Source: Pocillopora damicornis
Lineage: Eukaryota
Direction: 5' to 3'
Length of the DNA: 64,000 nucleotides
Assembly (NCBI RefSeq): GCF_003704095.1
Contig: NW_020844103.1
Span: 310,001-374,000, forward strand
Numbering within the stretch: position 1 is the first letter of the stretch; every line of letters starts with the position of its first letter. The position numbers and the translations under genes are program-made. The notes under the pieces were generated by a model. It was not told the DNA's origin, did not search any database, and was given only the letters and a program-made list of their open reading frames with translations. This document shows positions 1-58,900 of this stretch, piece by piece.

Positions 1-163
1 AACAAACAAAACAAAATAAAAAACAAGCAAAGATTTATATTTTATCGGCAAAAATGACATAGAAATTGGTCTTTGCGCATGCGTTAAGTGGCATGTTAAA
101 GATATGAATGAACCTTTTTAATTCGCATTTTCCTATCTGTTTCTTGAATTTCTGTTTAAAAAA

Positions 164-5846: not shown

Positions 5847-7325
5847 GTGAGTTTGCATATCTGGATACTTAGTTGGAAAAAGTTTGAGGTAAGAGTCATG
5901 TGTCATTCTGGAGTTTCTTTGTTTCCCCATCCATGCTTTGTTTGTCTTTTTTTCGTTCGGTCACGTAATGTTATTCCCAGTTTACATCTCAGAATGGATT
6001 GACTTTGAGGGCCTGGGAGAAAGTCTACAGGAAATATCTAATAGGGCAAATTTGGTCAAGTATTTAATCCCAAGACTTAAAAATGATAAAAACGGAAGAG
6101 CTCCATCGCTCATTTTATGCAAAACGCCACTTACATGGGCTAATTTCGAATGCAGACAACTGTTTGCTAATCGGTGACGGCTGATCATATTCGCGAACTA
6201 ATATTCAAGCTAATTTTCTTGCCCAACGTGAATACTGTTGACAGATTTTATGGCATTTTGTTAAAAGTGATTAACTGGTGCCATAAAGCATCTGATTACA
6301 GATGGGGCACATACATTCTCTCCTGGTCTATCTATGGCCTCAGGTCCGTTCCCTCACATTTTGTGTGCACCTGGCTTCTATTGTTATTCAAATTAAGGTA
6401 GGCACTTTTAGCAAACCATGACAGCGACGGAAACGAGGTGACAAAGCAAAAGATCTAATGGGGAGAACAAGAACTCCGCTCGTGCGTTTTGAAAATTTGT
6501 ACGAAACAACAACGTGAAATCCCCAAAATTTGCGTGGATTAAGAAAGGAAACCCCGACGGCAAATTAAATTATTTAAGTTTCCGTCTGGAATTAAACACT
6601 ACTTCCAAACGTGAAGCTGAAGTTGAAGCGTGGTGCTGCAAGACATCCATCCATTCACGAAAGTCTAACTAAAAATATGTATTTAATTTTTAATCTACGT
6701 CTTCCCTGAAATTGCCTTCCTCGCTGTTTAAGGTCCCAAATGATTCAAAGAAATGCAATGATAGCAAGTGGCCTAAACTATGGCCTAAACTGTTCAAAGG
6801 AATGATTTTTCAATTAATTTTTGGTATGACATATTAGAAACCAGGCTTGATGTTCTTTTATCTATGAAGGATTTCAAGCCTCGTTAGTTTTGTTTCCATT
6901 GTTAACAACGCTAGAAATAAGTGCGCAAACGGAAATTCTAGTTTTATTAAAAGTTTGTTTAATACGCGAATGTCAAAAGAGCTTTTGTTAACTGCCAACC
7001 TGGTGAATATTCCTAAAATTATACTTTCAACCAGTTTAAAGTTCCCTTTGAAAATGATCACTGGAAAAAACTTTCTGACTTTTTGTTCTTGCGGCTGTCG
7101 CATATAGAGCAGTTGTCGCCGCTGAATGATAAGTATTATTCTTCATAAAAAAACAAAACAAAACAAAACAAAACAAGCGAATGCTTTTTTTTAAAAAAAA
7201 GGAAACATTTGGCAAAAAGGACATAGAAAGTTTTCATGGAGCATGCGTTAAGTTGCATGTTAAAAATGTAAATCAATCCTTTTAATTCGCAGTTTCCCAT
7301 CTGTTTCTTGAATTTTTCTAAAAAA

Positions 7326-23398: not shown

Positions 23399-26300
23399 TC
23401 AATATATTCCATGGACTAATTTCAGTTGCTTAATAAGGTTGTGCTTCTCATTTTCCGGAAGAAATGCAGATCTTGCAGCATTAAATGTCTGAAAAACACA
23501 ATGATAGCATGTATGCGCCTCTTTGTTATATCAACACACTTCTTAGGAAGAAAAATAAGTTAAAAAACTAATGGCAAGTGTGGCAAAACATGTTATGAGC
23601 AAGCTAGGGTGCATTCTACATGCATGTACATTCCACCCAGCAGGCTAGAGTGCATTTTGCATACATGCATATTCTGCCCAGCAAGCTAGTGTGCATTTTG
23701 CATACACATATAATCTGGCCAGCAGGCCAGGATGTATTTCACATACATGTATATTCTGCCCAGCAAGCCAGGATGCATTTCACATACATGTATATTCCAC
23801 CCAGCTGGCTAGGGTGCATTTTGCATACATATATAATCTGTCCAGCAAGCCAGGATGCATTTTGCATCAATACACATTCCTCCTAGCAAGCCAGGATGCA
23901 TTTCACATACATGTACATTCTGCCCAGCAAGCCAGGATGCATTTTACACTGTACATGTATATTCCACCTGGCAGTCTAGGGAGCATTTTACATACCTGTA
24001 TATTCTGCCCAGCAAGCTAGGGTGCATTTTGCATACATGCATAATCTGCACAGCAAACCAGAATACATTTTGCATCAATGTATATTCTGCCCAATTCTGC
24101 CCAGCAAGCTAGGGTGCATTTAGCATAAATGTATAATTTGCCCAGCGAGCCAGGATGCATTTTGCATCTAAGTATATTCTGCCCAGCAAGCCAGGATGCA
24201 TTTCACATACATGTATATATTCTGCCCAACAAGCCAGGATGCACTTTGTACATGTTTATTCCACCCAGCAACTCAGGGTCCTTTTTGCATATATGTATAT
24301 TCTGCCCAGCAAGCCAGGGTGCATTTTGCATACATTTAACTACTGCTTAAGAAGCCAGGGTGCATTTTGCATAAATGTATATTCCACCCAGCAACTCAGG
24401 GTCCATTTTGCATTCATGTCTATTCTGTCTAACAAGCCAGGGTGCATTTTGCACACATTTATACTCTGCCCAGAAAGCAAGGGTGCATTTCACGTACATG
24501 TATTGCCTGCTCATTCCTGCCTGCCCATTTTTTTTCCACTGAACATGAGCTTGCCATAAGCTAATATTCAAATTATTTTTATTGTATGAAGCATTTGGAC
24601 TGGACTGAATGTCGTAAAACCAAAACCAAAGTAATCTAAATGGCCAATTAGAAGAAAGGAAGATACCTTTAAAAAGCCAATGAAATTCACTTAATACCTA
24701 CTTACATGTACGCACATAAAAACAAAATAACTTGCGCAAAATGCAGGAAAACATATATGACCTAGTTGTAATTGGTTTTAGTTTTAGTTTCAGTGCAGGG
24801 TAGGGCTTCATTGCACCCAAACATCCTAATCTAAACTCCAGTGCTCTGTTTTGTGAAAGAGTAGCTTAACTATCACGCAGCTTTGCATTGCAAAAGCCAA
24901 GAAAGAGACAACATAACATACCGCTTGGGTTAATTCTGCAGGGGTCAGTCCAATTTTATTAAAAGCAACGCCTTGTTCAAGGTCCACTCTTGTTTGGCAA
25001 ACAAGTGGATCATCTGAGTTAATGGAAAAATTTACTCCATCCTCAACAAACCTTGAAACAAAGAACACTCAATATTAAAATAAAACTAAATTAGAAAACA
25101 TACACAGGATATTTGCTCAAAGCCACATTTGCAACAATCTTGTCCAGTGAAAGGGATCTTACTCCTTTTGGACAAAGAGTGAAAATAGCAATGACAAAAA
25201 GATATCATTTCAAAGCCGTTAAGTTAAACAAGCCTTTTAATACAACCTACATATTATTGGGTCCACTTTACATTGCTCTAATGGTAACAATTTAATCTTC
25301 TAATTACTAAGGATAACAAGGAACACTTTCTCACAGATAGGCATTAACTTTTTTATAACTAAGCAATTCTAATGAAGGATAAAGTTAAATTGACTAACTA
25401 TACAGAACTTAAGAAGTGGCATCTTATAACTATGAGCTAAATTTCCATTGTCAGTGTCAACAAAGCTAATCTTGTTTGAAGGACAGCAGATAGCTTCTAT
25501 GGTCACCCATCCCCTGCTGCATACATAAGTTTTTACTAGTAGAGATCTATCAAATATATAATAATGTAGAAAGTATATGCAGGTTACATATTTTTCTCCC
25601 AGCACTCAGAGGCTCACTATAAAATTTGCATAATTATANNNNNNNNNNNNNNNNNNNNNNNNNNNNNNNNNNNNNNNNNNNNNNNNNNNNNNNNNNNNNN
25701 NNNNNNNNNNNNNNNNNNNNNNNNNNNNNNNNNNNNNNTATGATGTTTAAAACCCCCTGCATTGAAACTATTCTGTACCCAGAGTTCTCATGGTCAGACA
25801 GGCAAGCAAACATATCCGGCCAGCTACTACTGACAAGCTCTCCAGCACATTACACCTTTCTCAAGACCACTGAAAATTATACTTTACAAATTCAGTGCAA
25901 TTCAATTCATTCAGTTTGTTTCTCAAAAGTCTAGAGGTTTGCAATTCCCAAAGCTGTTTTTGTCATGTTTTTATTTCAAAATGGATTTATGCTTTAACTA
26001 ATTAAAACTAACATCTGTTAATTAAAACAGTTTTGAATTTCAAACAATAAAAATATCAGAAAATGAAACAAAGGCTTGCACTGTTATTCTCCTTAGAGTA
26101 ACAGTTTAGAATAATTATGGCTTTAAGCCTGTTAAGCTATTATAACTTTCAAGAAACTCTCCCATTGGTCTCTGTCTGACCTTCTATGCCACTGGAATGC
26201 TGGCAGAAAAAGAATGTTGCTGTAGCAACTCTTATGATGTAAGCTCTTAAAATGAATAAGGCAATGATTTCACTTCAAACCAGTAAATTGCGTGCCGGCT

Positions 26301-29300
26301 TGTAATTGTGCCCTTTATTGACATATTGATTCTGAAGTTCACATAGGCTTCCTAGCTTTGCTTTTGAGTGATGAAGATTATTTTTTTAAGATATGTTAAC
26401 ATTAAGGCAAGGAAGACGTATTTACATGAAAATAAGGGAAGAACTTTGATGCTCACCATTTAAGAAAGGTGGTCAACAATAAATGGTTTTCTTTATATTC
26501 TACAATGAATCTGGAAATAGCTCTTGGATGGATAACATAGTGACATATTAAAATACTTTTGTTTTAACAATACTTACTATTTTCACATTGGCAGCTGGAC
26601 CTGCTTCTCCAGCATGGACTGTTCTATGTATATTGAGCCTTTTAGCTTCCTGCATAAAAAAAAGATTTCTTTCATAAATGGCAAACCTACTATGTTAGTA
26701 AGACATTTACAGGGTAGACCAACCATGCCATCAACCAGAAAAATGGAAATAGGTCAATAGTGAGGGACTGTGAATATGGAATGTTAAGGACACTAGCCAG
26801 AAAGCTCATTTTTATTTAATTGATTATTGATTAGTTTAATTATTTCTGTTATCCTAGATAAGAACATAGTTACAAGTTATCTGTTTGTTTATGTTTCTAT
26901 TTGTTTTTGTAATTGGACCTTTCAGTGTCACCACGTGCATATAAAAGCAAGTTTAGTGTCCCTATAATCAGTTCTTCGCAAGTTTTTGATTAGTCTTCAT
27001 GAACTTTCGACTTTTTGATTTAAACCTTTGGCACAAGCGGGACCAATATGTGAGTAACTTTGTAACTTTGTTTTTTCTAATTTAGTTTTGCAGCTTTGGG
27101 TGAAAGTATACAAACAGATATTTTGTTATAATATGATGTATTTTGAATCGAATCAAGATTTAAAGGCAAAAATTGTGTCAGATTCAAGTGAATGCCCACT
27201 ATTTAGATAAGAATGATAGGCTGTTAACCAGCCACCAAATTCTTACAATTTTTGTACTTTAATATAGTTAATGTATTGGTTTATTTGTATTGTTTTATCA
27301 TCATTTTAATCTCCTTGTTGGCGTTAAGGCCTAGCTTTTTACATGCAGTTTTTTATTATGTTTTTTGCAGCATTTCTTTAGATTGATAGATCTTATTGTT
27401 TCAGTTTATAATTGTTCAATTAATTGATTGACTGATTGTGAGATTGGTCATGAATTATACAATTATTGTAGTTTGTGGATTGCTTGCAAGATTAAAGATT
27501 TGTGTAAAGGTCAACTTTGGTCTATTACATTTCAATCTCAATCTGTAAAAAATAGCCCTAAACACCTCATTGAATGTGTCTTGGGGCGACACTGCCTGAA
27601 ATCTTCTGAATTAGATTTTTGGTTGCCACAAGTGCTACATGGAATTATGTCCCTCTAAATTATTATAGTCCACACTACACAGAAGTTATAATACATTATG
27701 TTATTTCACAAATATTTTGCTTTTTTAACCCCATATCTTAAAATCTAAGTTATTATATTGCTGGCAGTGCTCTTGGGCAATATCAATCAAATCCTGTGTT
27801 CTGATTGGCTACTCAAGTAAGCAAGATTGGCCCATTTTGCCTGCTTGGGATTGTCCCCTTTGATCACATACAATAAAAAAATTTACTTGGAGCAGACATA
27901 CAAAGTTTATAATTTTTGGACAATATCAGCCATAGAGTTGCAAAAAGCAGCAGGAGACAGTCAGCAAACAAAGAAAACAAAAAAGGACTCCCATGGGTTT
28001 ACTTTGCTAAAAACACAGTTGGCTTTCTTTCAGGTCTCTTGAAATAAACATGTCTTGATTCTTACTAAATGACAGATCTCTTTTGCCATATGATATAATA
28101 AATCCTTCATTTACCAAGCTTTTTGGGTCAAGAATTGGCTGGACATCAGCCTTGTTCTTCTTTTGCATTTTTAGTAACCTCCATTTCATCTCAGTCCATA
28201 AAAACAGAAAAAAAGAACTTGGCTACTATCCAGCCACCTTTACCTCATGGCCAATAACGCATCTATATATATATATATTGGATATATCATGATAACCATA
28301 GCCACAGACAGATGAAAAGCACAACGAGACCTTATATGCATTCACATGTCCTTCCATAGCTTGTCCTTCCCACACCGGCTCATCACCAGCAATATCAATT
28401 CCTACCACTCCCTCATTTGCAAATTCCTGGCAGAGGGACACAACCTCCATTGAACAATCTTAAAACAAACACAAATTTAATTACACACATGCATAATTAA
28501 TTAGCATTAAAGAACACATCCACTTTTCTAAGGCAATGACTGAATGTCTGTTGATGTTTAGATTTCATACAACTTGGTAAACTTGTTTATTAAAAAATGC
28601 CAAGTTCTTGATTTCATAATGATACAAGAAGTTGATTTCTACCAATGTTTTCATTTGATCTTCTCAAAAAGTAATCTTAGTTTTTATGATACTTTAATGT
28701 GTTTGTAAATTTGTCTAAATCTGTTCTCGCTTAGCAATAAGATAACAGTTCATTAAAATTTGAGTAACACATTGTCAAATAAAATTTAATTCATTTCAAC
28801 CCTTATTAACAATCAATGTGTTCAGGAGGTGGGGAAGGCTGGCAGCAAACCCAGAGAAAAATTGGAAGGTATTCCCACAAACCTTACATTGGGTTATCAC
28901 AAACGAGAATTGCTACATGGAGGGTGAAGTGGGAAAAAGCTTAGAAGAAAAGTTTTAGCAAACTGCAAGGTGATTCCTGCAGATCAAGGGCTTTTTAGCT
29001 TCCTCTCATTGAAGTTGAAGGCCACAACGCACTATCAATGATAAATTTCTGTGTTAATTAACCAGCTGAATAAAATCTTTTAAATGTCATCTATACATTA
29101 CCAGGGAGGTGACGCATACAACAGAGAATAGAACGTGCAATCACACCAAAATCTTTAGCTCCTTTTTTCAATCCTCTATTCACTGCTTCCACTATAGCTT
29201 TTGGGGACACTCTTTCCTGGTCTGGAAAGGCTGAGTTTTCTGTACAAAGGGCATGAGGACTGTAACGAACTTCAAAGTACAGGACACCACATGCTGCCTG

Positions 29301-32300
29301 GTCTTCACAAAATTCATATGCTATTCTCTCCATTGCTTCAGTATCATTTCTAATTTTAAAAAGAAAAGTCAGGAAAACAATCATTAACTTTCATTAGCAA
29401 GAGTAAGTACATCATTGTGCCGCTTTCAACCACTTCAAAACTCTTTAGAATCATAATCAAAGCTGAACTCAGTCAGTTAACCCTTCAACTTCCACAAGTG
29501 ACCAAGACAGAATTTCTCCTCACAAAATCAACACAATATCAAGCAGGAGAGTGATGAGAATTAAGAAAAATATCATCAGGGGTTATTAGTAGATCCAATA
29601 CCAGATTCTCCAGACCAACCTCATAAGAATTCTATGGCAGACAGTGAGGAGAATTATTAATGAGATCTTGAGAGTGAAAGGGTTAACTGATGTGATTACC
29701 TAATCAGTGCTGTCCACACTTTAATCATAACCATTACAAATTCCTCAAATATTATCGGTGCATTCACAGCTTCATTTTTTACCAATCATTCTGTACAGTT
29801 GTGATGGGACAGTGTAATTGAACAGTTGGCTTTAATTCAACCCCTGTAATCGGAAGTTGAAGCAGCCAATCATACTCAAGTCCACTCAGCTAATCCACCA
29901 ATCACAAAAATGATCAAAATAACCATAGCAACAACTACTAATCCAAAGAAAAACTGGGGAATTTCCAAAATGGAGGAATTCTTACCTGAAGACATAGTCT
30001 CCACTGGAGATATTTGTTCTAGGTGTATTTGTTTTTTCAGAAATTGAAATGGTTATGATTAATTGGTAACAGGACTTCTTGTCATCCAATTCCATCTGTG
30101 ATCATATGAGTTATTAACAAATCAGATTCCCGCTTTGCAGTTATCTGATTTTGTTAATCACTCATATGATTACAGACCCAACTGGACTACACTTGGTCTT
30201 ATTACCATTATAAATAGAATGCAGTCATTGATTTCATAGTAGTCTAGTATAAGCATTTAAAGCATGACATGCAAAACCCATATCATGGAGAGGACAGGCG
30301 AGTCTTGCCAACAAGAATTGGTTCCACCAGAGAGCACTTGTTTGTGGCTATACATGGAATATGAACTTGAGAAATTGGCATGAGCAGTTTGGAAATTGTA
30401 CTTTGTAGTGACTACATTCTGAGTTGTGTAATTCATGAGTTTTTTGGGTAAGATTACTGAAGATGCACCTGAGACACTTAAAGTTCTCAACATTTTCTAG
30501 GGGTGGGGGAAGGGCAAAGCATGCCTCCAAACTTCCCTTATGAATGGGACCTTCAGCCATACATCCAGTGGCTGGTTTAACAATTGGTGGGGGTGTGTAC
30601 AAATGATCAAAGTTTAAAGTTAAGTTCTGGTAATGGTGGGTTGAGTTTGTGGTACTCACCGAATAAGAGGGTAAAAAATTTTGAAACATTCCAAAAAACC
30701 TGCCAAAGTTGATGGTTTGTTTAGACTAATGGACACATAGTCCTTTAAACAACTCTTGTCAAAAGAAGGTAGCTGATATTGCTTCTTCCTGTAATTACAA
30801 CCAAATAAGTAAAATATTCATTTGTGGATCTAATACTTTCCCATTTATCTTTTCACTCCTAACTGTGAATTGCCACAAAGAAATCTAGCCATGTCTTGTG
30901 AAAAGCAAACCTTCAAATACCCTATGACATCAGGCCTCCCCTCCCCCCATCAGCAAAAACTTCATATCTTTTTTTTTCAAAGGGTAACGCCAAACTTAGC
31001 AGCATGTTTTGTGCCTTCAGAATTGTATTTTCTGATATTGTGTTTATCACTTCCCTAGTAATATTGACAAAATACTAGGCAACCATTTTGAAATTGAGTG
31101 CTTCAGTTACAACCACCTTGTGCTAAGTGATTATAGCAAGATATTATGCAATCTTTTACCAATCAAAGCACACGCATTTCTATAATCATCAGAGCAATTA
31201 TATTATTCTGTAAATAGCCAGTCCCCTAGCAGGCAAACTGTGCCCAAGCAAGGACCTCTGCAAGGGTGACCATAAGTGCATTACTTTGCCAAATCTANNN
31301 NNNNNNNNNNNNNNNNNNNNNNNNNNNNNNNNNNNNNNNNNNNNNNNNNNNNNNNNNNNNNNNNNNNNNNNNNNNNNNNNNNNNNNNNNNNNNNNNNNNN
31401 NNNNNNNNNNNNNNNNNNNNNNNNNNNNNNNNNNNNNNNNNNNNNNNNNNNNNNNTTAGACATATAGTAAAATTCAAAAGGATTGCGTAAAAATCCATGG
31501 GAAATCATTTTGATTCAAGTTACTGCAAGGCTTGGGGTATAGAAATTTGATCAAGTCATTGGGAGTTGAATGTACTCCAGAAGTAAAAGCATGTGACAAG
31601 TTTGCCATTAAATTCAAATGGGACTCCCAAAGTTTCTAACAATGCAAACACTTGCTGATCTTTACATATTAGGTCATTAAACAAACTAAACTTGCCATTC
31701 AGAATGCAGCTCTCCTCCCATACATATTAAAGTAGCTAGATTTAGTGTAAGGAAAATGCATTATTTAACAAATAGATTCCAAGTTGCCATGTGTCTGTTC
31801 AGTAATAGATCACAGATGACATCAAAATGTGGTAAGCTACCACATTTTGATGTTATTTGTGATCTATTACTGAACAGACACATGGCAACTTGGAATCTAT
31901 TTGTTTTATATAATAAAGAATTAAAATATACAGAAAAGAGATTTAACGATGACATCATCTATATGTCTGTCCTCCAATAGATCATAAGTGAGAACCAATA
32001 AGAATGTCTGCATAACTGAGCTTATTATATAATTTTGTATAGAGTAACATGATACACGAAACAACACCTCCAGTCCCTCCCAACTTTCTCTGGACGAGGC
32101 CCAAATATGGACACAAATATGGCTTCCGACTTTATCTTGCCAAACTTCCAGAAAATTTCATTGTAATAACGACTTACTTAAAAATTATGCTTGAGCATCA
32201 GGAGAGTGCTGACGTGCTGACGTTTCTGAATTTAACTTTGACTTGAAATACAAATATTAACATAGTATCATCGATCGCACTGGATTAAATTTCAATGACT

Positions 32301-32845
32301 CAAGATCTTGGATATAGCAACGTGGAGTTTGGAGAACGAGAGTAAATATAACGATTGACTCAAAGCAAATTTTAACTTTCACTGATATACGCTCTGAAGC
32401 TGATTCAAAACGAAGAGATCGGATTGAAAAGAGGCAAAGATTTAGGAAACAGAGATACCCGTCACAACACGTGTTAGCGGGTTTATACGTATCCCTAGAC
32501 CGGCTACGCGTGTAAATCACTTCACATTTGCACAGAGCAAACTTATGTTTAAGGTAATCTTACACCATGAAATCAAAGATATGAGACCCCTTTAATGATA
32601 TGAGACCCCTGTAATGCTTTAAAAAAGCATACGGTTTAAGGTTTGAATAAACATTTAAGACGATAGGTTCACGTTACAGCTACGACAGGCTACGACAGAC
32701 ATGCTGTGAAACGTTACAACAACACTACAAGATATATTTGGTTACTACGCAGAAATCGGCCAACGTGGCTAGTTATTTTGAAGTCAAACCTAAAATAACT
32801 TCACTCTCACCAACTTACTTTCGACTTTGGTTGTTTAAGTGCCAT
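23399..32845 (-). CDS. ADA: Adenosine deaminase; exons 32845-32819, (gap)-31285, 30788-30660, 29349-29102, 28458-28331, 26649-26578, [missing, probably in gap 25639-25738], 25051-24922, 23488-23399
   Basis: Motifs ERIAYEFCED..GVLYFEVRYSPH, VVGIDIAGDE, HRTVHAGE, NFSINSDDP and FNAARSAFLP. The short first exon MALKQPKSK mirrors vertebrate ADA exon 1. Confidence 0.9.
23598..24510. repeat. Intronic minisatellite, ~38-40 bp unit, more than 20 copies
   Basis: Consensus CCCAGCAAGCCAGGATGCATTTTGCATACATGTATATTCTG repeated in the last ADA intron. Confidence 0.9.
29472..29690. mobile_element. MITE-like element; related fragments near 13830, 15440, 19830, 42720, 52500 and 53850-54250
   Basis: Terminal inverted repeats TCAGTTAACCCTT ... 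AAGGGTTAACTGA, and the internal sequence recurs across the window. Confidence 0.65.
31767..31905. repeat. Long near-perfect palindrome (MITE-like)
   Basis: AACAAATAGATTCCAAGTTGCCATGTGTCTGTTCAGTAATAGATCACA... is mirrored around 31836. Confidence 0.85.
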
Positions 32846-33775
32846 ATCTGTTCAACTTTCCGGTCTTTCACTTCACCGTCTTTTCAGTTTCTTCTGCGTG
32901 ACGAGTTGGATGACTGCGTGACTTTTGCGCAACTCTTGTTCTTTTGGAAAACTTAGTAGGGGTAGGCTCAACACTCCTTGCCAAGTGAGGGAGGGGTAGG
33001 AAAGGAGTTGCACCTATGGAGGTAGGCTGCAAGAAACTGAACTACAACATTGTATATCAAAGGGTGAATAAGCTAACCTAATAAAGATGAAATATATTTT
33101 GAGCTCGGAAAGTTGGTTTAGTCTGTCTTGTTACGAAGGAAAAATTTTGGGTCCCCATAAATCCTCAATAGACCTTCCGATGTCAGTGGTTAGTTTCAGC
33201 GACTGGAAAGACGTCGAGCAAAAAAAGAATATTGTATTTTATGTCAAGCGTCCCTTTGCCACACATCAACTTAGGCAAAACTTAGGTGGACAGCGTTGAG
33301 TTCCAGATGGAAACTGGAATAATTTGCTGTCGTTTCCGTTCACGAACCAAGCAGATCTTGGTCTGATTTCACGTGGTTGCTTTTGCAGAGGACAGCTCAG
33401 TAAGGAATATTCAAAGTTTTAAACGCACGTGCTGGGCTATTGTTCAGCTTCCCATAAGATCTTTTTTTGTTTTACCCTGACCTCGCTGCTGTCGCTGTCG
33501 TGGTTTTCAAGGAACTCATGCCCTGCATAGTGCTAGGATAAGCAAAGGCAGAGTGTAAGTTGATCTTTGTCTCATATTCGTGGCAAGACGAAAAACAATT
33601 TCCTCTTTAATTCCACTCTGAGGTCAAAATTAAGCCTCTCTCTGTTCTATTGATTCACATGGTGCTCATGGATACATACAATATTTTCGATGTCTTGAAT
33701 TCGTCACAGAACGTAAAAAATTAACAAATTTTTTTACAGTAAGTTCATTTACCTTAAATATATAGGATCAATATG

Positions 33776-33890
33776 AGTATCTGGGCAACTGCCCTCCTAC
33801 CCCTCCCCTAACCCAACATTAACCCTAAGTTGTTATTAATTGACTGTTGTTGAGTCAGGGGAGGGGTAGGTGGGCAGTTGCCCAGATACT
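33776..33890. mobile_element. Palindromic MITE-like element
   Basis: AGTATCTGGGCAACTGCCC..CCTACCCCTCCCCT ... AGGGGAGGGGTAGG..GGGCAGTTGCCCAGATACT. Confidence 0.75.
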
Positions 33891-34382
33891 ATACATATAT
33901 ATATTCTTAATTTGGCTATATTTCATCATATGATTCTCTTCTAAGTATCAGTTGAGCAGTTCTGCTGGTTTCTTCATTCAATTGTTAAATGGCTTTTATG
34001 ATCTATATTAAATTGAATTTTTTTTACTGATGCTAGGTGGCTTACAGCCTGTAGCACTTGTAGACTATTTACATTGGAATATAAAAAGCAAAAATTAAAA
34101 TTGATCAATTGATTTTTGTGGTCAAAGAAGCATTAGATTATTACTTCCTTAACACAATAAGGTGACTTTCTCAAGAAAGCATTATATTTAAAAACTCAGC
34201 TAACAATTTTTCTCCGAAGCATTCTTATATTAAAGTATATAATTAGATATTATATATTATTTACCCACGATGAAATAATATAATGAAAACAATTCCCTCG
34301 CGCAGTCTTTTTTAGCAGTGTAATGCGAGTTTAGGAGTTTTAAAAATTGACTGAGATGAAGTTTCAGAACCTGCGTATCATG

Positions 34383-35738
34383 TCATGCATGTATTCCACT
34401 CTCCTCTTTTGGCTCTGTTTGGTCTTGTAGAGAAACAGCAATATTCGCCATCGTATTCCAGTCTATGTAACTCATAGAAGGAGAGGTTACAACATGAGGA
34501 ATGAATTTTTGGATCCGATCTATCAAAGGATGTGCGATATCCGTACCTTCGATCAGCCCAAATTTTTTCTTTTGGTAATATAAGGGTGTTCCTCGTAACA
34601 ACATCAGAGGAAAAGCGACCAGCGAGCCATCAGTCGTCTCTTGAAGCTTCAGTATAGTCTGCTGGAAACTCTCTACGGTTTGCAGGGGCAAGCCAAAGAT
34701 GAGGCTGACTTCATGCTTAATTCTACGTTGATTAACAAGAGCCAGTTTGTGTAAAACTTTCTCGGCTAACTTATATGTGTTAGCATTGCGCACTCGCTCT
34801 ATATGCAGCAGCTCTTCGGGGTCGAGTGTTTGCACACCAAACTCCAAAACTACTTCAGCTCCTGTAGTTTTGCTCAGGGACTCTACCTGATCTAAAAACG
34901 CCTCCGTGATTCTTTCAGGCCTGCACTGAAGGCTGATTTTTCCGGAAAATCTGGCACGTTCTAGAAAGTCAAGTACCATGTTTCCGTTCAGCGTGTTAAA
35001 AGTGGGATCTAGCACAGCAAGATCGTGGACATTATTGTCGACGAACCATTCGATTTCCGATTGAATCCGATCCCTTTGCGAGTGCTGGATTTTAGTCCAG
35101 CTCTTATTTGCTGGCGAAGAAGGTGATGGATCTCTGTGCTGGCAAAATGAACAGCTGTAAGGACAACCACGGGTCGTTTCCCAACGCATGAAGTGCTGAG
35201 GTTCTAATGTTCCGTCGAGGAAAGGCGACGAAAGGTCGGATAATTTGGTAGACGTATGAAAGCCCTTGTCTGGAGTGTTTGCTAAGTGGACTCCTAGGAT
35301 ATTATCCTTCCCTTCCGCAAGTTCTAACACAGCCTGTTCTGCATACCCCCGTATGAATACATCTCCCTCCGGATAGTATTTTTCTAGCTCTCCTTTCTCG
35401 ACGTAAGACACCTGAGGACCTGCAATAACAATCCGACCTGGGTAGTCATAATATTTCAGTTCGCGAAGAATCGTCTTGAGGAAAGGCTCATTCCAAACAA
35501 AGCCTCCAAACATGAGATCATATTTCGAATCATTGTACTGGCTCCAAATCGTGTCAAGGATATTCCTTGCTAACGGGTAAACCTGCACTTCTTGAGCGAT
35601 ATTGTACGAGTGAGCATTGTACTCGATTTTGTTATGGCTCAAATGGCTGATAATACTCGCCACACCAAGCGACAATCGGGGATCCTTAGGCCGAATATGA
35701 TCGAGGCTTATCAGTATTGGAATTCTAGATCGTAGCAT
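34383..35738 (-). CDS. Cobalamin (B12)-binding radical SAM protein, 451 aa, intronless
   Basis: N-terminal B12-binding-like motifs (SLGVASII, IVIAGPQVS, DVFIRGYAE). Radical SAM core WETTRGCPYSCSFC (CxxxCxxC), LDPTFN, EFGVQT, LIFGLPLQT and LLRGTPLY. Confidence 0.9.
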   Translation of the reverse strand: MLRSRIPILISLDHIRPKDPRLSLGVASIISHLSHNKIEYNAHSYNIAQEVQVYPLARNILDTIWSQYNDSKYDLMFGGFVWNEPFLKTILRELKYYDYPGRIVIAGPQVSYVEKGELEKYYPEGDVFIRGYAEQAVLELAEGKDNILGVHLANTPDKGFHTSTKLSDLSSPFLDGTLEPQHFMRWETTRGCPYSCSFCQHRDPSPSSPANKSWTKIQHSQRDRIQSEIEWFVDNNVHDLAVLDPTFNTLNGNMVLDFLERARFSGKISLQCRPERITEAFLDQVESLSKTTGAEVVLEFGVQTLDPEELLHIERVRNANTYKLAEKVLHKLALVNQRRIKHEVSLIFGLPLQTVESFQQTILKLQETTDGSLVAFPLMLLRGTPLYYQKKKFGLIEGTDIAHPLIDRIQKFIPHVVTSPSMSYIDWNTMANIAVSLQDQTEPKEESGIHA

Positions 35739-35867
35739 TTTGCTTTGCTTTCAAGCAGGAGTTATTTAATGGGCTCCTGGTTCAAGGCATTCCTTGAAAA
35801 GAATTTTGATTTTACCCAAACCCATTTTGTTTTCCTATGGCGTCATTTAATTATATTTCTCAGAAAA

Positions 35868-35890
35868 AGCGGAAGTTTCGCGCGCGCGCA
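35868..35890. promoter_or_regulatory. CpG-rich ETS/E2F-like motif in the divergent radical SAM / MPV17 intergenic region
   Basis: AGCGGAAGTTTCGCGCGCGCGCA, ~130 bp upstream of the radical SAM ATG. Confidence 0.4.
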
Positions 35891-35935
35891 CTCCTGGAGC
35901 GCCACAGGCTAACCATCATCATCGAAAGGCTGTGT

Positions 35936-35951
35936 AATAATAATAATTATG

Positions 35952-35988
<37 letters not shown>
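35936..35988. repeat. (AAT)n microsatellite
   Basis: Direct reading of the sequence. Confidence 0.95.
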
Positions 35989-35989
<1 letters not shown>

Positions 35990-36864
35990 CCCGACAGCTT
36001 GAATGCTGCAGGGGTTTAAAACAAAGAACCAGTTACCAGCGTCTACCGCCGCCTTGTAAGACCTGACGACCACAGTTAGCCTTTTGGCTATTTAGCCTAC
36101 TCTCTTTAAATAAAGAATTGGCTATGCATGTACTACTAAGACCTCTTACTTTCGTCCGTTTAGCCTGTAACAGGCTCCCTTCACTGATCACCGCCTCTTA
36201 TGACATCATCGACAGTGGCATAGGGAAAAGATAAATAAAACTCCTGGGAATGGATGTAAAAACCGACCTCATTCCTTCCTCGTTTTATTGTCTCCTTACA
36301 AACGAAACCGTTAACTGTTCGTAGCTGAACTTTCTATAATTACTGCACACATGATGTGCACGAGCTCAACCTTGTGAGGGTTATCAATTTCAATCTCGGG
36401 AGACTTTTTGCTTTCGGACATTAGCGACGAGGTGCGGCCTTCCCTCCCCTCCCCTACATGGGGGCAGCCAGTGTTCACCTGGGAATAGTCATTTGTGCAA
36501 CTTTCGCTGTGGGGTAAAAGTCATTCGCAACTCTATTTCCTGTTCGAAAGTTATTTATCGTAGCGATAATTCCGTTGAAATCTCTGATATGAATTTCCGA
36601 ACCCAACATTCTGGAAATCATTTGGTCCGAGTTCAAAGTTTCGTTTAAAATTTTTATGTTTCTATGGTAGCGGTGATGCTGGTTTATATTGAATATTGTA
36701 CGGCGAAATGCAAATTTGACTCAGGCCACAATATATTCAAGGTTCACTGCTGCCGGTAATAACGTCATTCATATTTCACAATACAAGCAACTTGATAAAT
36801 AGTTAGGAAAGCATCATGGCTGGGCTGTGAAACGTTAGTGTAAGAACAAGGATTCAGTGGTGCA

Positions 36865-39036
36865 ATGAGATTACCTCTTCGTGCTTGGAGATGGTACATG
36901 CGATGTTTAGAGATTCATCCGTGGAAAACTCAGCTCATCTCGACAGGTAGACTTTGACCCTTGAATCATTAATCGTTCCTAACAAGCTAATTTTTGAGGT
37001 AAATTTAAAAATTTGTGGGCAAGATTTATAATTTTTCAGCGGCTTGGTCATAGAAACCGCAAATTACTTCTTGGGTCTACGTTCCCAACCAGTGTTTAGC
37101 ACTCTAACTGGGATTACGGTCTATCGAACGTAAGGTAATTAAATATTTGTCTTGACATCACAATAATTCGAAGAGTCGTATGTGTTTTTCAAACCACAGG
37201 TACTTATTTTTCTAATTTCTCATACATTTACTGCCGCTCCACTTTAGGTTTCTCAAAATCTTTCCAGGTAAGTCAGATTTTTATTCTGCAGGAATGTCTA
37301 GTTTGCGTTGAAATTCGTTGTGGTATAGGAAGTCATCGCTAAATCAAACTCGTTCAGATTGAAACCGCGGCTCCTCGTGATCTAATTCGGTCAAAATTTG
37401 CTCTCATAGTATTCTCTGCGAAGTTCATACGAAATACATTATTTTCAATACAAAATAATCTCTTAAAGACAAGCGAAAACCTGTTCAAGGATCAGTTCCG
37501 AATCCTTGCAAGATATTTCAAATGCCGTCGACCACTCAGCTGAAGAACTTCTGGTTTTATGACATTACAAGCTCTAAGAATCACTTCAATCCTGATCAAT
37601 CGTGTTTAGAAATGTTACATGGCCTTTTCGTAAAGCAGAATGGATTGGCCACCGAAAAATCAAGTGTATCTTTCAAAGTCTCGGAACTGTCTTACATAAA
37701 ATCAGTGAACGCTGCTTACGGTAGCGAAGTAGAAAACGGTAAAGGAGTAAGAATTATCAGGAAACTAAATTTAGCGTTCGTTTTTGTAACTTTCTTTTGT
37801 TTCAAAGACTTTCTCTAAAGCAGCATTGACGGTAAACTTTACATCTGACTCTTAAGTGTACATTAAAATCGCCGAAAATGAGTATGTGGTTCTTTACTTC
37901 GTGGTGTCAGCCTGGTTTCGAGCACAGAAATCTGTCACCTTCATTTGTTTTTGTCCCAGGGTCCTCAGTGGGTACGTTATATATGAGGACATAAATTATA
38001 GCCTAGTGTGGCCTACACGTTTCTTGTTCCGTGCTTCCCTCGTTTTCCCACTTTCCTTGGCTTGCGTATTTCATTTGCCAGGATTTATTTTACTCACAGG
38101 TCTAACTTTTTCTGCCTGAAGTATTTGACCCGTCAGACTTCACTGACGTGGCTTACTTGATTTTACACAACTGCCCGTCCAGGGAAGGGAGTAGGTGGAT
38201 CTCACTGTCTTTGGTTGTGGCTCTGTGAGGCCGGAGACCATTTTTTGAAGCTTCGTTCATTACAAGAACTCAGAAAATTATAACGCTGAATAGTTTTCTG
38301 ATAATTTCTGTATATTTTAAAAAATCTGATGTTAACATTTCACATTACGTTATTCTACATTACTTACACACATACATTACACATACATGCTTGCCCGCTC
38401 ATAATTGCCCATGATTCCCAATGTAGAAGAAGTGATGGATTTAGTCTCGAAAAAATATCCAGAAGGTGAGTTGGAAGGAGAAAAAATAAAGAGTGACACA
38501 AAAGAGGCTGCTGACAAAAATAACATGGTGTTCTTATTTAGCTCGTTTTATTTTCAGGAGCACTTCTCGGAGCTGGAGACTTCATTGCACAACAATACGT
38601 TGAGAAAGTTCCATTGCGAGAGCATGATTTGGTTCGTACAGCCCGAATGGCGGCTGTCGGAACTGTTGTGATTGGCCCCATATTCCACGTATGGTACGCA
38701 CAACTGGATAAAAGATTTGCTCGCAAAAGCCCTGGAAATGCCATCCGGAAAATGACAGTGGATCAAAGCATCCTGGCGCCAGTGTTTCTTGTTTTATTTT
38801 ACGGTGCTGTCGGAGTCGTTGAACGTCGCACCATCAAAGAGATTAGTGACAAAATCTACGAGGAATTTTATCCCAATATGGTTGTGAACTACCAAATCTG
38901 GCCAGCTGTTCAGTTCTGCAATTTTTATTTTTTTCCAGCCCATCTGCGAGTGCTGGTTGTGAATGTTGTATCACTGTTTTGGAATACATATCTAGCATGG
39001 ACTTCGCACAAGGAGTTGGAACATTCCAAGCAGTAG
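36865..39036 (+). CDS. MPV17: MPV17/PMP22 family protein, paralogue A (exons 36865-36946, 38558-39036)
   Basis: WRWYMRCLEIHPWKTQLISTG|ALLGAGDFIAQQ...RTARM...WYAQLD...VDQSILAP...NYQIWPAVQFCNFYFFP...LFWNTYLAW. Confidence 0.9.
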
Positions 39037-51574: not shown

Positions 51575-53289
51575 ATGAGGATTCTCGTGAGAGCTTGGGC
51601 CAGATATCAACAGTTACTCATAACTCACCCATGGAGAACTCAAACTATTGGCACAGGTGAGAAATAATGGTGCAATTTTCACGGATAATTTTCTCTGTTA
51701 TTAAAGCGGGCTTGGCGCGCTGCGAATGGTTAGAACGATTTTGTTTGGTAATCGCATGGGGTCGAATAAAATTATAATTACATAAAATTAAATTTTAGTA
51801 AACTTAAAATTAAGGAAAATGAATATTTTTCCGAGTTGCACAGCGACGAGAGTGATTTCTGCAACTTCTGAAAACACAGGTGATATCAATCCTTAATATT
51901 ACAATTACTTGTTTAGCATATAAAAGTCAAAATTTCCTTTTAATAAGATCAACAACGCACGCTGTTACGCACATTCGTAGGAAGCCATTTCAGTGTTTAG
52001 TTAGCGTCAATGATCTGTAAAACGTACGAATCAGCTGCATTTAAAAATTATTTTAAAAAATTGTGACAAAGTTAAGCCTTTTCTAAATTTTGTTCATTGC
52101 CCAGAGCAACATCCAAAACTGATAAAAATGCCCTCTGTCTCAGCAATTAGCATTTAGTGATTTTGCTCTCTATGTTATAACTTATTCAATTATTTGACAC
52201 CTTGGTTTGCACCTTAATGTGGCAACTGAGGAAAAGACAGGCTCATGCAGTTGCAACTGAAGAAAAATGTATTTCAAAACAAGTCATGAAAGACTCTAAA
52301 GATGCAGGCTACTGACACATGTACACTGTGCAGCACAACCAGACTTTTGTGCCAATTTAATTTGGGGACATTATTTAGCAGAAAATCAATTGCTATTGAT
52401 GTAGGAAGCGTTTTGTCCCTTTTGAAGGGCTGATGCAGGTGGCCTGTATTATTGTCAGCAACAATTAAAGAATGCTAACCATAAAATTCTTAACTAGTGT
52501 AACTCCTAAGGTTTGATTTTCAATACTCCCCTCCAGCTGTTTGACATTTCTTTGTAAATTAGTTATGAGAATTTGGTGTCAGATCAAGATAACAAGTTCT
52601 AACTGTACTCTCATTGCCTGTTTGCTGGATAATGTAAGAATACTGCTAAGGGTTAGGGAGAAGTTACATGTTAATCACTCATGGGAGTTAAAGGGTTAAA
52701 GAAATTAGTCAACCTTATTGGACACTTGTAAACTATGCTTCGTAAAGAATCTTACCATTAAATTTGTGTTTTTTGTTTTGTTTGTTTGTTTGTTTGTTTT
52801 TTAGGTGTTCTTGTTGCCATTGGTGATGTTGTTACACAGCAGTGTGTTGAGCAGAAAGGGATCACTCACGATTTCACCAGGACAGCTCGTATGGGTGTTG
52901 TTGGTTTAATTATCGGCCCTGTGTTTAGAACATGGTACCTGACATTGGACAGACTTGTTCCTGGAGCAGCAAAGACTGCCGGCTTCAAAAAGATGCTCCT
53001 TGATCAGGCTCTCTTTGCTCCATGTATGATTTGCTTTTTCTTTGGTGTTACAGAGACTTTAGCTGGGAAAAAACCCTCTGAAATAAAAGAAATGCTTCAG
53101 GAGCGCTATTTGGAGACAATGGTTACCAATTACAAAATATGGCCTCTGGCGCAGACGATTAACTTCACGTTTGTTCCAATTCAGCATCAGGTGGGGTTTG
53201 TTCAGATAGTGGCAATATTTTGGAATGCCTACATGTCTTGGATGACCAACAAGCCACTTCAAAAGGCCACCCTAGATAGCATGAACTAG
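51575..53289 (+). CDS. MPV17: MPV17/PMP22 family protein, paralogue B (exons 51575-51656, 52805-53289)
   Basis: AWARYQQLLITHPWRTQTIGTG|VLVAIGDVVTQQ...RTARM...WYLTLD...LDQALFAP...NYKIWPLAQTINFTFVP...FWNAYMSW. Same 82-nt first exon as paralogue A. Confidence 0.9.
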
Positions 53290-54973: not shown

Positions 54974-55976
54974 CATTTTACAAAGCGAACATTATGGACA
55001 AATTACATTTTGTTGCCTTATTAATGCTATGGTTATGAATGTCATATTATTGTGTATATTTATTGACAGGTGTATGAAATATCTCCTGCATAAGATTTTT
55101 ATTTTCCTCTCATATTCTCTAAAATTCCACAATAAAGGTGGTGAAATTTTTGGGTTTAAAAATAAAGAATTTTTGGATGATTAAAATTTGGTGGCTGATG
55201 TGCCAGCATTGTGTGAGGTTCAAAACATTTTGTCCGTACCACGTTGCTCTTCCTGGTTAAGAATAAAGATTCAGCACATTCTCATTACTTCAAAGATGAT
55301 AGCAGAGGAATTGATGTAAATTTAAAATTTAATTGTTTCGTTTTAAAGTTCTGACGCTGACCGCTTTTAAGAATTTAAATTTTCTTAAATTTCGACCACA
55401 GCCGTGACCATAATTAATGCTGACCATCATGCAATCTGGCCTCTCACCTGTGACGTACAAGGCCTCATTCCTTGTTTTTTTTGTATCTCTTGGTGATCTG
55501 TTCTAACGATTGGAACCTACACAAAGGAAGTATAATAGCTAAAATGATTTGTTCTTTCATGTTGTTTAGGGATAAGCAGCGTGGCAGCTGTTGCACCTGA
55601 CGCGTTGTGATTTTTAAAGCACGTGGCTTGATTTCTGATTTGTTGTTATTGTTGTTGTTTAGCTCGTTTGAAGGAAATTTTTGATAAGAAAACTTCGCGG
55701 TTTAAAACTAGAAACACGCTAAGCAGTTAATATCTATCCATACTTGTGAGGCGGAAAGAAGACTTGTTCATCCCAGCAGACGAGTCTGATGAACTGCGGG
55801 CGCAGATTACTAAATCGTCACGACTATCGTCACGTTATTCGTCATTAAACGTCCCTATGGTGACTGGAAGTATGTTTGTTTTGGCTGTTTGATTCGGTGA
55901 ATTTGTCGGTTATTGAAAACAGTAGCAGAATTCACGATATTACTATTTCCTTGAAAAGAGTTACTCAAAGATCACG

Positions 55977-58900
55977 ATGGTTGGATTGCAGAAAACTGAG
56001 AATCAGATTTACGCAGACATTGTTCGCAGCTTGAAGCAAAATTTTCGTTCCGAGCCTCAAATGTCGCTGACTCAAAGCGACAGAAAAGTGCGAATTCGCA
56101 CAAATCGTTACTACAAGTCCGAACTAACCGAAGATCACTGGAAAGATAAATACAACCGGCATGTTAAACAGCGACTCTGTGGATTCTACACACCGGCTCA
56201 TCTACCATATGCTTCAGTTGGTGACGTTTGTCTGGATATACGCGATCTAGTCCTCGACACTGTTGGAATTGATCAAAGCTCAGAGAAAGTAAGCAAACAA
56301 CAAATATTATACATATTGATAACGCTCAGTTGCCGAGTGTTTCTCTCGTTTTTATAAAGCCTGCTGTGCAAGTGTTCGGCCTGTTTCACTACTGTTAGTT
56401 ATTATACTTTTTTCGTTTTAATCAGGTGGATCCTCGTGTGTGCGCATTTATTTTAAGTTACATAGCTGTTGCTTCTTCTAACTGCGCAGAAAGTTTAAGA
56501 TAGCTTTGTGTTCAGAAAAAGAATTAAAATTTGATCCAAACCAAGAGATTGAAATATCTTTTCCAGACTCAAAGAGTCAATTTCCCTATTTTATGCACGT
56601 AGTTTAGAATCTAAAACATTGTCACAAAGGTTTTACTTGCTGTTAAATCTCTCCATTCACCTTATTTGCCCAAGTACTATTTTGACACTTCTTCTTTTTG
56701 TTCCTCCTTTATTTGTTTCTGAAACTACAATTAGCTGATACCACAGATTCTTTTACACCTGTTTTTGCAGGAAAAAACAGGAAAAAAAGGACAGGAAAAC
56801 TTTTCATATACGTTTCTGTCCAACCTAAAATTTGAAATATCGGCGAGAAATTGCGCGCACAGATTCGTTAAAAGCTCACGTAAGGTTGGAACTTCAAGTG
56901 ATCTTAAAAAGTTTTACATAGCAATAAACTTTGAGAATCAGAGTGTAACGGATCTAGGAATTATTTTGCGGTGTTACACAGCCATCGGAACATATGCAAA
57001 CACCACAACAACGACAACAAAATCTCAGAGTGAAAGAACACCATAGATTGTACCAAGGGTGATTCAAAATTGGTATCAGCTTCTAATTGGTTGAGTAGCT
57101 CACTGGCGCGAGTTTCTACCCCAACCACAAAACGCCCTCGAAATATGGAGTTCAGTGTCATACCCCGTCCACTTTAACATATTCAGCCTTCATTTTTCGA
57201 GTCTATAATTAAAATTATTGTTAATATTTCGCATCTTGTACCATCTTCTTTCCTTTTTATGGGAACCTTCCTTATCTTTCAGATTATTTTTGCCCAAGAA
57301 AATGATTCTCTATGGTGTTGTTATGTTATTGCATGTGAATTGAAGGTATTAGTGATAACATAAAGTACCGCATGGCAGTTCTGACCTCAAGTCTGGCATC
57401 GCTTAGATGTTTGGCGAAATGAACCAACTTACTAACTTACCTTGTTTTCACCTTTAGTGTAATGTCAGTGTTGTGGTCGACTCGAACGAAAAGGAGAAAA
57501 AGGAAGAAACAGACACAGAGAGTACCGCCCAAAAGGCATGTTCAATTAATTTGCCCATTAATTGATTTGCGCGTCAATAGAATTACATCTCGCGGATGCT
57601 CTTAGAGGCCCTTAGGGGTGTAATTAATTTTCAGTTCTTCTAGATGATAAAATCGTTTAGAGAGGGAACATATGTATTAGAAAGTTGGGAAGGGTGTGGG
57701 TAAAAAATTTATACAGTTAAAATGCGAAATTTTTTCCCTCAGAATCTTTGCTCATATTTGATAAACATTGATGTTTATTTTGTNNNNNNNNNNNNNNNNN
57801 NNNNNNNNNNNNNNNNNNNNNNNNNNNNNNNNNNNNNNNNNNNNNNNNNNNNNNNNNNNNNNNNNNNNNNNNNNNNNNNNNNNGGTAATGATACTCTTGG
57901 TCGCTTTTACGTAAAAGAAACTGGGATAAGCTCCGGCATGGTGTGCCACTTGGCTCGGGAACTGACTTAACCTTTACCGTACAGTAATCAAGACAGCCAT
58001 TTAGAGTAAAAGTTTTCCTTGTCTCTCATTACGTGACGAGGGAATTGACAATCTCAAATCTTACTGGCTACTGGCGAACAATTCTTGCTGTGTTTACTAT
58101 TTTTTCTGGGTCACTTCAACTTCTACCTCTCAACACACATGCGCATTTAAAAGAATATATCATATCTCTATGTAGGTGGTAGATGTCATGAAGGGCCCTC
58201 AAGGTCAGTTGCTGATGACGGAGCCATCAAATGTGTCTCCGAATAAAACCAAGAAAATGATGAACAAGCTCAGGTCATTTGATGGAACTGACACATTAGG
58301 GGTTGGGGAAGAGTTGATTGCCGCCTTCCCCAGTGAGATAAAATCAGAACACGAGGAAGAGGTTATTGATCAGAGGTAAGTTATTATGCAATGACTGGTC
58401 CCTGCTGTAAGGACTTGCATTAATCTAACTTACCCGCGTGGATTTGTTTTCGACCTAATTTCAATTATGCGTTCGGATACTCAATTAATTGACCTACGAA
58501 GAAGTCTTTGAGACACCATACCACAAAAAGCAAGTAGAATGATATGTAATAGACGTCCTGCATATTGTGGCGTCAGCACTATTGCGCGCAGCTCAAAGGT
58601 TTAGCAACCAATTCAGGGCCGGAGTACCAGTCCTCGCTCCTCGGCAGTGGTAAGTTTTTTATTCTCCCAGTTTGATGGCAACCATCCCCTGACCGAGATA
58701 TTCGTGGACTTTAGATACCAGTCAATCTCATCGACTCAAAAGACGAAATCGATCAATAAGAAAATTACGCCTTGTATTAATATTGTAAGCCGTTTGATGC
58801 CCAAATAAAGCTTCATAGTATCAGCTCACTGCGTGTTGAAAAGATCACGAGCCACAAAAGAGAGTTTGACAGTTATGTTTCGTTTTAGGGATGTACAACA

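Follow-up and report, generated by a model that had tools for sequence, protein, structure and literature searches.

A predicted B12-type radical SAM gene of the PDC-M51A family beside ADA and MPV17 genes in the coral Pocillopora damicornis

We analysed a 64,000-bp stretch of the Pocillopora damicornis genome (contig NW_020844103.1, positions 310,001 to 374,000; hereafter the window, part of the assembly we call G000), in which a first-pass annotation had proposed a compact gene module that makes, detoxifies or moves a modified nucleoside. The proposed members are an adenosine deaminase (ADA), a radical S-adenosylmethionine (SAM) enzyme of the cobalamin (B12) type and two MPV17 proteins. All four genes are present and their adjacency is real: remeasurement gave 1,537 bp from the radical SAM stop codon to the ADA start on the same strand, 1,126 bp between the start codons of the divergently oriented radical SAM and MPV17-A genes, and 12,538 bp from the MPV17-A stop codon to the MPV17-B start codon. 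The ADA and MPV17-A proteins of the window are 99-100% identical to Pocillopora-labelled proteins. Our analysis centers on the radical SAM gene, which by sequence appears to be a kinase-less animal variant of the bacterial defence candidate PDC-M51. The features involved are:

34383 to 35738, minus strand: radical SAM enzyme of the PDC-M51A family with a predicted N-terminal cobalamin-binding Rossmann domain, seen as an open reading frame (ORF), in poly-A RNA contigs and in a structural model
23399 to 32845, minus strand: adenosine deaminase (ADA1 orthologue), starting at 32845 and ending at 23399, seven exons seen
35739 to 36864, no strand: 1,126-bp divergent intergenic stretch between the radical SAM gene and MPV17-A, possibly a shared promoter
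36865 to 39036, plus strand: MPV17-A, 186 amino acids, two exons (36865-36946 and 38558-39036)
51575 to 53289, plus strand: MPV17-B, 188 amino acids, two exons (51575-51656 and 52805-53289)

The radical SAM gene, an intronless ORF coding for 451 amino acids (35738-34383), is intact, single-copy and under purifying selection. It is the single match in G000, and among 120 matches listed of 1,026 its coral orthologues are 75-93% identical, with the next matches at 48% or less. Between the same species the protein is 80-82% identical versus 68-76% for ADA. The ratio of nonsynonymous to synonymous substitutions (dN/dS) was 0.061-0.073 among the coral contigs L088-L090 and 0.044-0.050 against the window, with dS near saturation in the latter comparisons and one of the six pairs saturated. 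Its GC content at third codon positions (GC3) is host-like (0.45). In two studies, poly-A RNA contigs with agreeing ends reach from 33913/33914 to 35835/35849, and the gene was found in the RNA assemblies of all four runs examined, which speaks of its presence and not of its level. Another coral copy (L091) carries an intron after codon 158 (L091:1274), where the gene calls P0292 and P0559 also stop; neither G000 nor the Montipora- and Oculina-like contigs have this intron. The pattern could reflect intron gain, or retrocopying that could explain a change of position. In a four-member protein cluster (P0013/P0312), the sequence runs out of frame past residue 348 relative to window 34383-35738, which could be an assembly error or a null allele that segregates. 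A further coral protein copy (P0596) with changes fitting C-to-T conversion throughout likely derives from a bisulfite library and was disregarded.

The predicted structure (pLDDT 93) places a Rossmann domain N-terminal to the radical SAM barrel. Foldseek ranked TokK and CysS at the top (E 4e-25 to 2e-23), above OxsB (1e-14) and viperin-like enzymes (2e-5). In VIA, CysS was closest (Z 32.5, root-mean-square deviation (rmsd) 3.1, 408 residues aligned), followed by MgmA (26.4), AprD4 (26.4, rmsd 3.6, 388 residues, both domains aligned), OxsB (22.7), TokK (22.5) and viperin (14.5). The sequence profile gave E 3e-31 for TokK/CysS versus 2e-6 for AprD4. Coral Trp82 aligns with TokK Trp76 and CysS Trp75, which passages of bioRxiv 2021.07.10.451909 and PMC12846815 describe as the lower-axial residues 3.8 Å beneath the cobalt. 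Trp82 and the cysteines of the CX3CX2C motif (Cys192/196/199) are invariant in all 106 aligned relatives, and the active-site-like motifs are nearly so over these 106 proteins. The Pfam B12-binding family (PF02310) is recorded for several orthologues among the 120 matches listed. Based on the model and these residues, we consider that the coral enzyme probably binds B12 and is active. Elsewhere, G000 has two other loci with a B12-binding domain, and a search of the Atlas matched only bacterial YgiQ/B12 clusters.

The sole match of the coral protein in PADLOC was PDC-M51A (E 2e-110, 367 bits; residues 3-441 on profile positions 3-415 of 420), and the same model scored on all five family members tested (E 1e-105 to 1e-138). 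Passages of Payne et al. (bioRxiv 10.1101/2024.01.29.577857) describe 145 PDCs that were chosen by their embedding in BREX, DISARM or restriction-modification (RM) systems, as candidates without tests; the main text of that paper does not contain 'M51'. In the best 80 of 120 prokaryotic loci (815 kb in all, 70 of them with at least 800 bp of downstream sequence), a thymidylate-kinase-like gene lies downstream on the same strand in 18, at 21-204 bp past the match. These partner kinases match PDC-M51B and the viperin-associated kinase VakA in PADLOC, and in the five genomes compared they are additional to the housekeeping tmk. Within one phylum, PDC-M51A is found in 25 of 301 genomes, at least two of which were already in the 80-locus set, and a kinase lies within 1.5 kb in 10 of the 25. 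The nucleoside and viperin theme of the earlier proposal thus gains independent support from the bacterial relatives, with a nucleotide kinase, not ADA or MPV17, as the partner.

The coral gene itself is flanked by ADA and MPV17-A, with no adjoining PDC-M51B kinase. An exon-wise, and hence weak, search of G000 returned one thymidylate kinase locus on C2698 and, for VakA, a best match of E 0.1 to an exon resembling deoxynucleoside kinases on C3414. Because no M51B adjoins the gene or was matched in G000, we regard it as a PDC-M51A-family protein and not as a complete PDC-M51 system. The viperin model TIGR04278 matched five exons on C3758, which belong to an intron-bearing viperin gene (G000:C3758:4609-10012, minus strand), and left the radical SAM gene unmatched at E 0.1. 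About 35 kb of sequence at this viperin gene showed no clear CMPK2-like kinase, which is a weak test; passages of bioRxiv 10.1101/2023.09.13.557418 put the share of viperins with a linked kinase at 12% in bacteria and 70% in fungi and animals.

Around the prokaryotic genes we also noted matches to BrxA/B, SoFic, PDC-M38, PbeA, AbiEii, HipA and DUF4258 near some loci (PADLOC or Pfam), which are given little weight because they come from hand-picked ORFs with no control. A protein of 550-720 amino acids with no Pfam or PADLOC family recurs upstream of the radical SAM gene (L027, L032, L080, L084 and L085), and in three loci it is followed by a small gene. Genes with DUF4258 or DUF2726 precede the radical SAM gene in other loci.

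In trees built by fast methods, with an unsure root, the corals form one clade (support 100) nested in a larger one of 19-21 rows (99-100), in which Anaeramoeba and other proteins but no GTDB prokaryote are found. The copies from Tieghemostelium, Paraglomus and Attheya are placed with bins of Legionellales-, Coxiella- and Rickettsia-like type, and the myxobacterial copies with a kinase branch outside that group. In many family members, intracellular-type bacteria among them, the N-terminus is extended by an Arg/Lys-rich, acid-poor stretch that looks like a mitochondrial presequence, as judged by composition alone; the coral protein has none. Within the Legionellales-like clade such extensions are seen in P0023, P0075, P0080, P0083 and others. 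Possible readings are that the bacteria acquired the gene from eukaryotes or that they direct the enzyme to host mitochondria. For the corals, phylogenetic placement suggests that a transfer into their ancestor is likely, perhaps from a protist; vertical descent with many losses is possible.

An exhaustive search returned 176 representatives at E 1e-30 or better. Because these bear no taxon names, other animals may carry the gene as well; among named records, corals are the sole animals. A viral donor was considered and rejected, as three scans of viral_contigs returned no relative and phage records gave two weak, unannotated matches at 25-26% identity. Plasmids gave no relative at 1e-30. Table 1 of PMC4878875, a 2016 study of gene transfer into corals, lists a coral-specific, bacteria-derived 'sam domain-containing protein' in a pocilloporid, which may be the present gene under a vague name; three of its supplements gave no match. 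The main text of that paper has neither 'radical' nor 'B12', and its passages on that gene propose no function. In a literature search that did not cover subscription papers, we met with no publication about the coral gene, about PDC-M51 under that name or about a B12 radical SAM enzyme from an animal.

Our preferred interpretation, to which we assign a probability of about 0.4, is that the radical SAM gene is likely foreign and, by prediction, codes for a radical methylase that uses B12 and has a nucleotide as its substrate, possibly with an antiviral role. The parts of this interpretation differ in strength. Radical methylation chemistry is suggested by TokK, CysS and the structural model. 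A nucleotide substrate, which the kinase partner in bacteria suggests, has somewhat less than an even chance. An antiviral role, argued from the PDC status and from the analogy with viperin, is doubtful; the full-length match to a bacterial anti-phage candidate makes a modified antiviral nucleotide possible.

In the mechanism that we propose, a [4Fe-4S] cluster held by Cys192/196/199 would cleave one SAM to give a 5'-deoxyadenosyl radical, which would abstract a hydrogen from an unactivated carbon of the nucleotide. Methylcobalamin, which would sit base-off above Trp82 and regain its methyl group from a second SAM, would then donate a methyl radical. Host kinases would stand in for the lost partner kinase by supplying or finishing the nucleotide, and the product would hinder viral polymerases, as the product of viperin does. 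The released 5'-deoxyadenosine would be cleared by a phosphorylase and not by the neighbouring ADA.

Several observations weigh against this interpretation. PDC-M51 is a defence candidate defined by embedding alone, as far as the passages of Payne et al. go. The kinase is absent from 62 of the 80 prokaryotic loci. The same holds for all 19 loci of the clade that lies closest to the coral gene among prokaryotes, where most of the genes alongside have unrelated housekeeping roles (of 100 ORFs nearby, 62 were scanned). The exon-wise search of G000 for PDC-M51B gave no match at E 0.001, and the coral already has a viperin gene. The coral protein has no match to PF02310 and all its NCBIfam matches are far under cut-off, so that B12 use stays a prediction. 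TokK and CysS act on pantetheine-linked antibiotic precursors, not on nucleotides. The clade that encloses the corals holds a protist and no GTDB prokaryote, and points to no clear donor. Finally, the radical SAM gene is linked to ADA in four of the five corals where both were placed (yes in G000, Oculina, Orbicella and L089, no in Montipora capricornis).

The alternative that survives best, which we hold to be unlikely, is that the enzyme is a B12 radical methylase with a non-nucleotide substrate (lipid, cofactor, protein or RNA) that serves ordinary and often mitochondrial metabolism in eukaryotes and intracellular bacteria, the defence link being confined to the kinase-bearing bacterial branch. 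The lack of a kinase in the 19 closest prokaryotic loci, the mitochondrial-presequence-like composition of many N-termini, the occurrence of the gene in the RNA assemblies of all four runs and the substrates of TokK and CysS are consistent with such a role. However, the whole family scores on one PADLOC model, its active-site-like motifs are nearly invariant, and its patchy spread (the 25 of 301 genomes given above) fits that of conflict genes.

It is improbable that the Rossmann domain holds no B12 and that the enzyme carries out B12-free radical chemistry, for example sugar dehydration as in AprD4 or viperin. AprD4, a radical diol dehydratase, is not known to need cobalamin. Its alignment across both domains and the missing PF02310 match would fit this view, but TokK and CysS are the closest relatives by both sequence and fold, the lower-axial Trp is invariant, and PF02310 is recorded for orthologues of the same gene.

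The module as first proposed, in which ADA either disposes of 5'-deoxyadenosine or trims the product, MPV17 transports that product and their linkage is selected, bears on all four genes. We placed orthologues using accession and record size as a proxy, not a map. Oculina has ADA and the radical SAM gene at consecutive locus numbers (ACROYT_G031956 and 031957, with an MPV17 at 031973), the two lie with an MPV17 on one 971,887-bp record in Orbicella, and on contig L089 ADA exon 1 starts about 750 bp past the radical SAM stop codon. In Montipora capricornis, the radical SAM gene is on a 54,133,718-bp record, and ADA and an MPV17 are on one of 50,184,710 bp, both of chromosome size; a second Montipora copy, unseen by us, is possible. 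M. foliosa and the anemone Actinia each have ADA and MPV17 on one record, which in Actinia is 532,681 bp long with the two accessions 35 apart. The 120 matches listed of 1,026 include no radical SAM orthologue labelled as coming from an anemone. Desmophyllum, with the radical SAM gene and MPV17-A on records of differing size, was left uncounted because it may have further unread copies. Conservation of linkage, which the first-pass annotation had proposed to check, holds between ADA and the radical SAM gene in most of the corals placed, but ADA and MPV17 are linked in all six genomes, including Montipora capricornis, where the radical SAM gene is elsewhere. This placement in Montipora is one of the outcomes that the first-pass annotation had listed as refuting the module. 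The simplest reading, which is inferential, is an old ADA-MPV17 block that the radical SAM gene moved into or out of.

The ADA gene appears from its sequence to be an ordinary ADA1. Exons for residues 11-29 and 223-278 are absent from the window sequence, with an N gap at each expected site (31298-31455 and 25639-25738); at the second of these, RNA contig X8/20 has about 167 additional bases, and the remaining exons are joined up in RNA contigs. With the near-identical full-length protein P0121 as the query, the score against TIGR01430 was 315.8 bits (cut-off 216.55), its metal and catalytic motifs line up with those of mouse and bovine-type ADA, and mammalian ADA structures were closest. None of its 37 PDB matches is named a deaminase of 5'-deoxyadenosine or of methylthioadenosine/S-adenosylhomocysteine (MTA/SAH). 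At least one ADA1-like locus exists in G000, the window ADA being the only one found. For the disposal of 5'-deoxyadenosine, passages of PMC6079011 describe a nucleosidase or a phosphorylase, the latter in mammalian cells. A degenerate tandem repeat in the last ADA intron (window 23590-24520) gives rise to spurious ORFs.

The two MPV17 genes named in the first-pass annotation are both real, and a third copy lies 13 kb beyond MPV17-B, just outside the window. MPV17-A and MPV17-B are tandem paralogues with an identical single intron and therefore do not count as independent evidence; the third copy (L002:3595-5145) has its intron at the same position. MPV17-A groups with an octocoral protein and MPV17-B with Actinia, which indicates that the array is old, and from these trees the split of A from B and C appears to predate the parting of octocorals and hexacorals. 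The spacing of about 12 kb between MPV17-A and MPV17-B was correctly noted, but two spliced genes for cysteine-rich peptides within it had been overlooked:

45678 to 46586, minus strand: secreted Cys-rich peptide 1, a one-intron gene without a Pfam family
48416 to 49204, minus strand: secreted Cys-rich peptide 2, a one-intron gene without a Pfam family
G000:C738:378144-376594, minus strand: MPV17-C, third paralogue, outside the window

Splicing of both peptide genes is visible in RNA contigs and they look related; they could code for toxins or antimicrobial peptides. The three-copy MPV17 array is thus interspersed with unrelated genes.

On these grounds the module is very improbable, and the clustering of the four genes is in all likelihood incidental, reflecting inherited gene order and not a pathway. 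The close spacing of ADA and the radical SAM gene in Oculina, Orbicella and L089 speaks for the module, as does the linkage of viperin and CMPK2, which shows that comparable linkage exists in animals (as reported in passages of bioRxiv 10.1101/2023.09.13.557418). But the linked corals may have inherited a single insertion, the two genes are unlinked in Montipora capricornis, and the ADA-MPV17 linkage is shared by Actinia. Moreover, no ADA or MPV17 homologue lies beside the 80 prokaryotic relatives or in 25 further, partly overlapping loci, the ADA is a standard ADA1 and the sole such locus found, MPV17-A is an old branch, and 5'-deoxyadenosine is a phosphorylase substrate in mammalian cells in the passages of PMC6079011. 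The proposal that ADA removes 5'-deoxyadenosine and MPV17 moves the product is accordingly not upheld, and the four-gene cluster is not worth pursuing as a module.

Contamination by bacterial DNA or a dead insert, which the intronless form of the radical SAM gene in the window and the frameshifted variant in the P0013 cluster might suggest, can be virtually dismissed, since the gene sits between spliced host genes in several corals, its orthologues form one clade (support 100), dN/dS is below 0.08, GC3 is host-like and the L091 copy carries an intron.

The rest of the window and its surroundings contain other genes. Two tandem multi-exon genes on the plus strand (window 122-2912 and 7272-9465) have EGF- and fibrinogen-like pieces, as judged by eye, and a doublecortin-domain gene (window 11856 to about 21100, plus strand) is convergent with ADA. 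Between MPV17-B and MPV17-C, a protein-like frame of 143 codons (window 55926-56357, plus strand) has no Pfam match. MPV17-C is followed by a CLN3-like gene and an intronless-looking mitochondrial carrier.

To our knowledge, two B12 enzymes are known in animals, methionine synthase and methylmalonyl-CoA mutase. That textbook list would become longer if a radical SAM enzyme that depends on B12 proved to work in an animal. In its boldest form, which we consider quite unlikely, our interpretation would give stony corals a third kind of B12 enzyme, a radical methylase whose ancestry lies in an anti-phage system of bacteria and which a scattering of protists and fungi also have; it would make a C-methylated nucleotide as a second small-molecule antiviral, independent of viperin. 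If true, this would tie coral immunity to B12 from microbes. If the enzyme is antiviral, it would be the second radical SAM defence enzyme, after viperin, common to bacteria and animals, and its product would be a new nucleotide analogue. Because the gene has been under long purifying selection in a eukaryotic host, PDC-M51 is a better-than-average candidate for testing.

Among the known systems, TokK and CysS (PDB 7kdx, 9n1b-d) share with the coral protein the Rossmann domain and radical SAM barrel, the CX3CX2C motif and the lower-axial Trp. They are 18-23% identical to it and longer (645-681 versus 451 amino acids), the coral protein being without the greater part of their C-terminal domain, and the coral gene has no antibiotic gene cluster around it. 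OxsB, of oxetanocin A biosynthesis, has the B12 radical SAM fold in common (Z 22.7) and, in the passages available, takes a nucleotide, deoxyadenosine monophosphate (dAMP), as its substrate. It ranks under CysS, at 12-13% identity, and has an additional N-terminal domain not in the coral protein (model residues 1-4 fall on OxsB residues 113-117); the same passages describe a four-domain layout and a requirement for OxsA. PDC-M51, with its radical SAM enzyme (A) and nucleotide kinase (B), differs in that the coral gene has an animal host and no B gene nearby or detected in G000; the coral copy matches A over its full length, and in 18 of 80 loci its bacterial relatives have B adjoining. Viperin belongs to a separate family that aligns to the barrel only (Z about 14) and is without a cobalamin domain, and most fungal and animal viperins (70% in the passages cited above) keep a kinase that the coral radical SAM gene lacks. 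Like the PDC-M51A family, however, viperin is a radical SAM enzyme paired in bacteria with a CMPK2/thymidylate-kinase-like gene, and it too is common to bacteria and eukaryotes.

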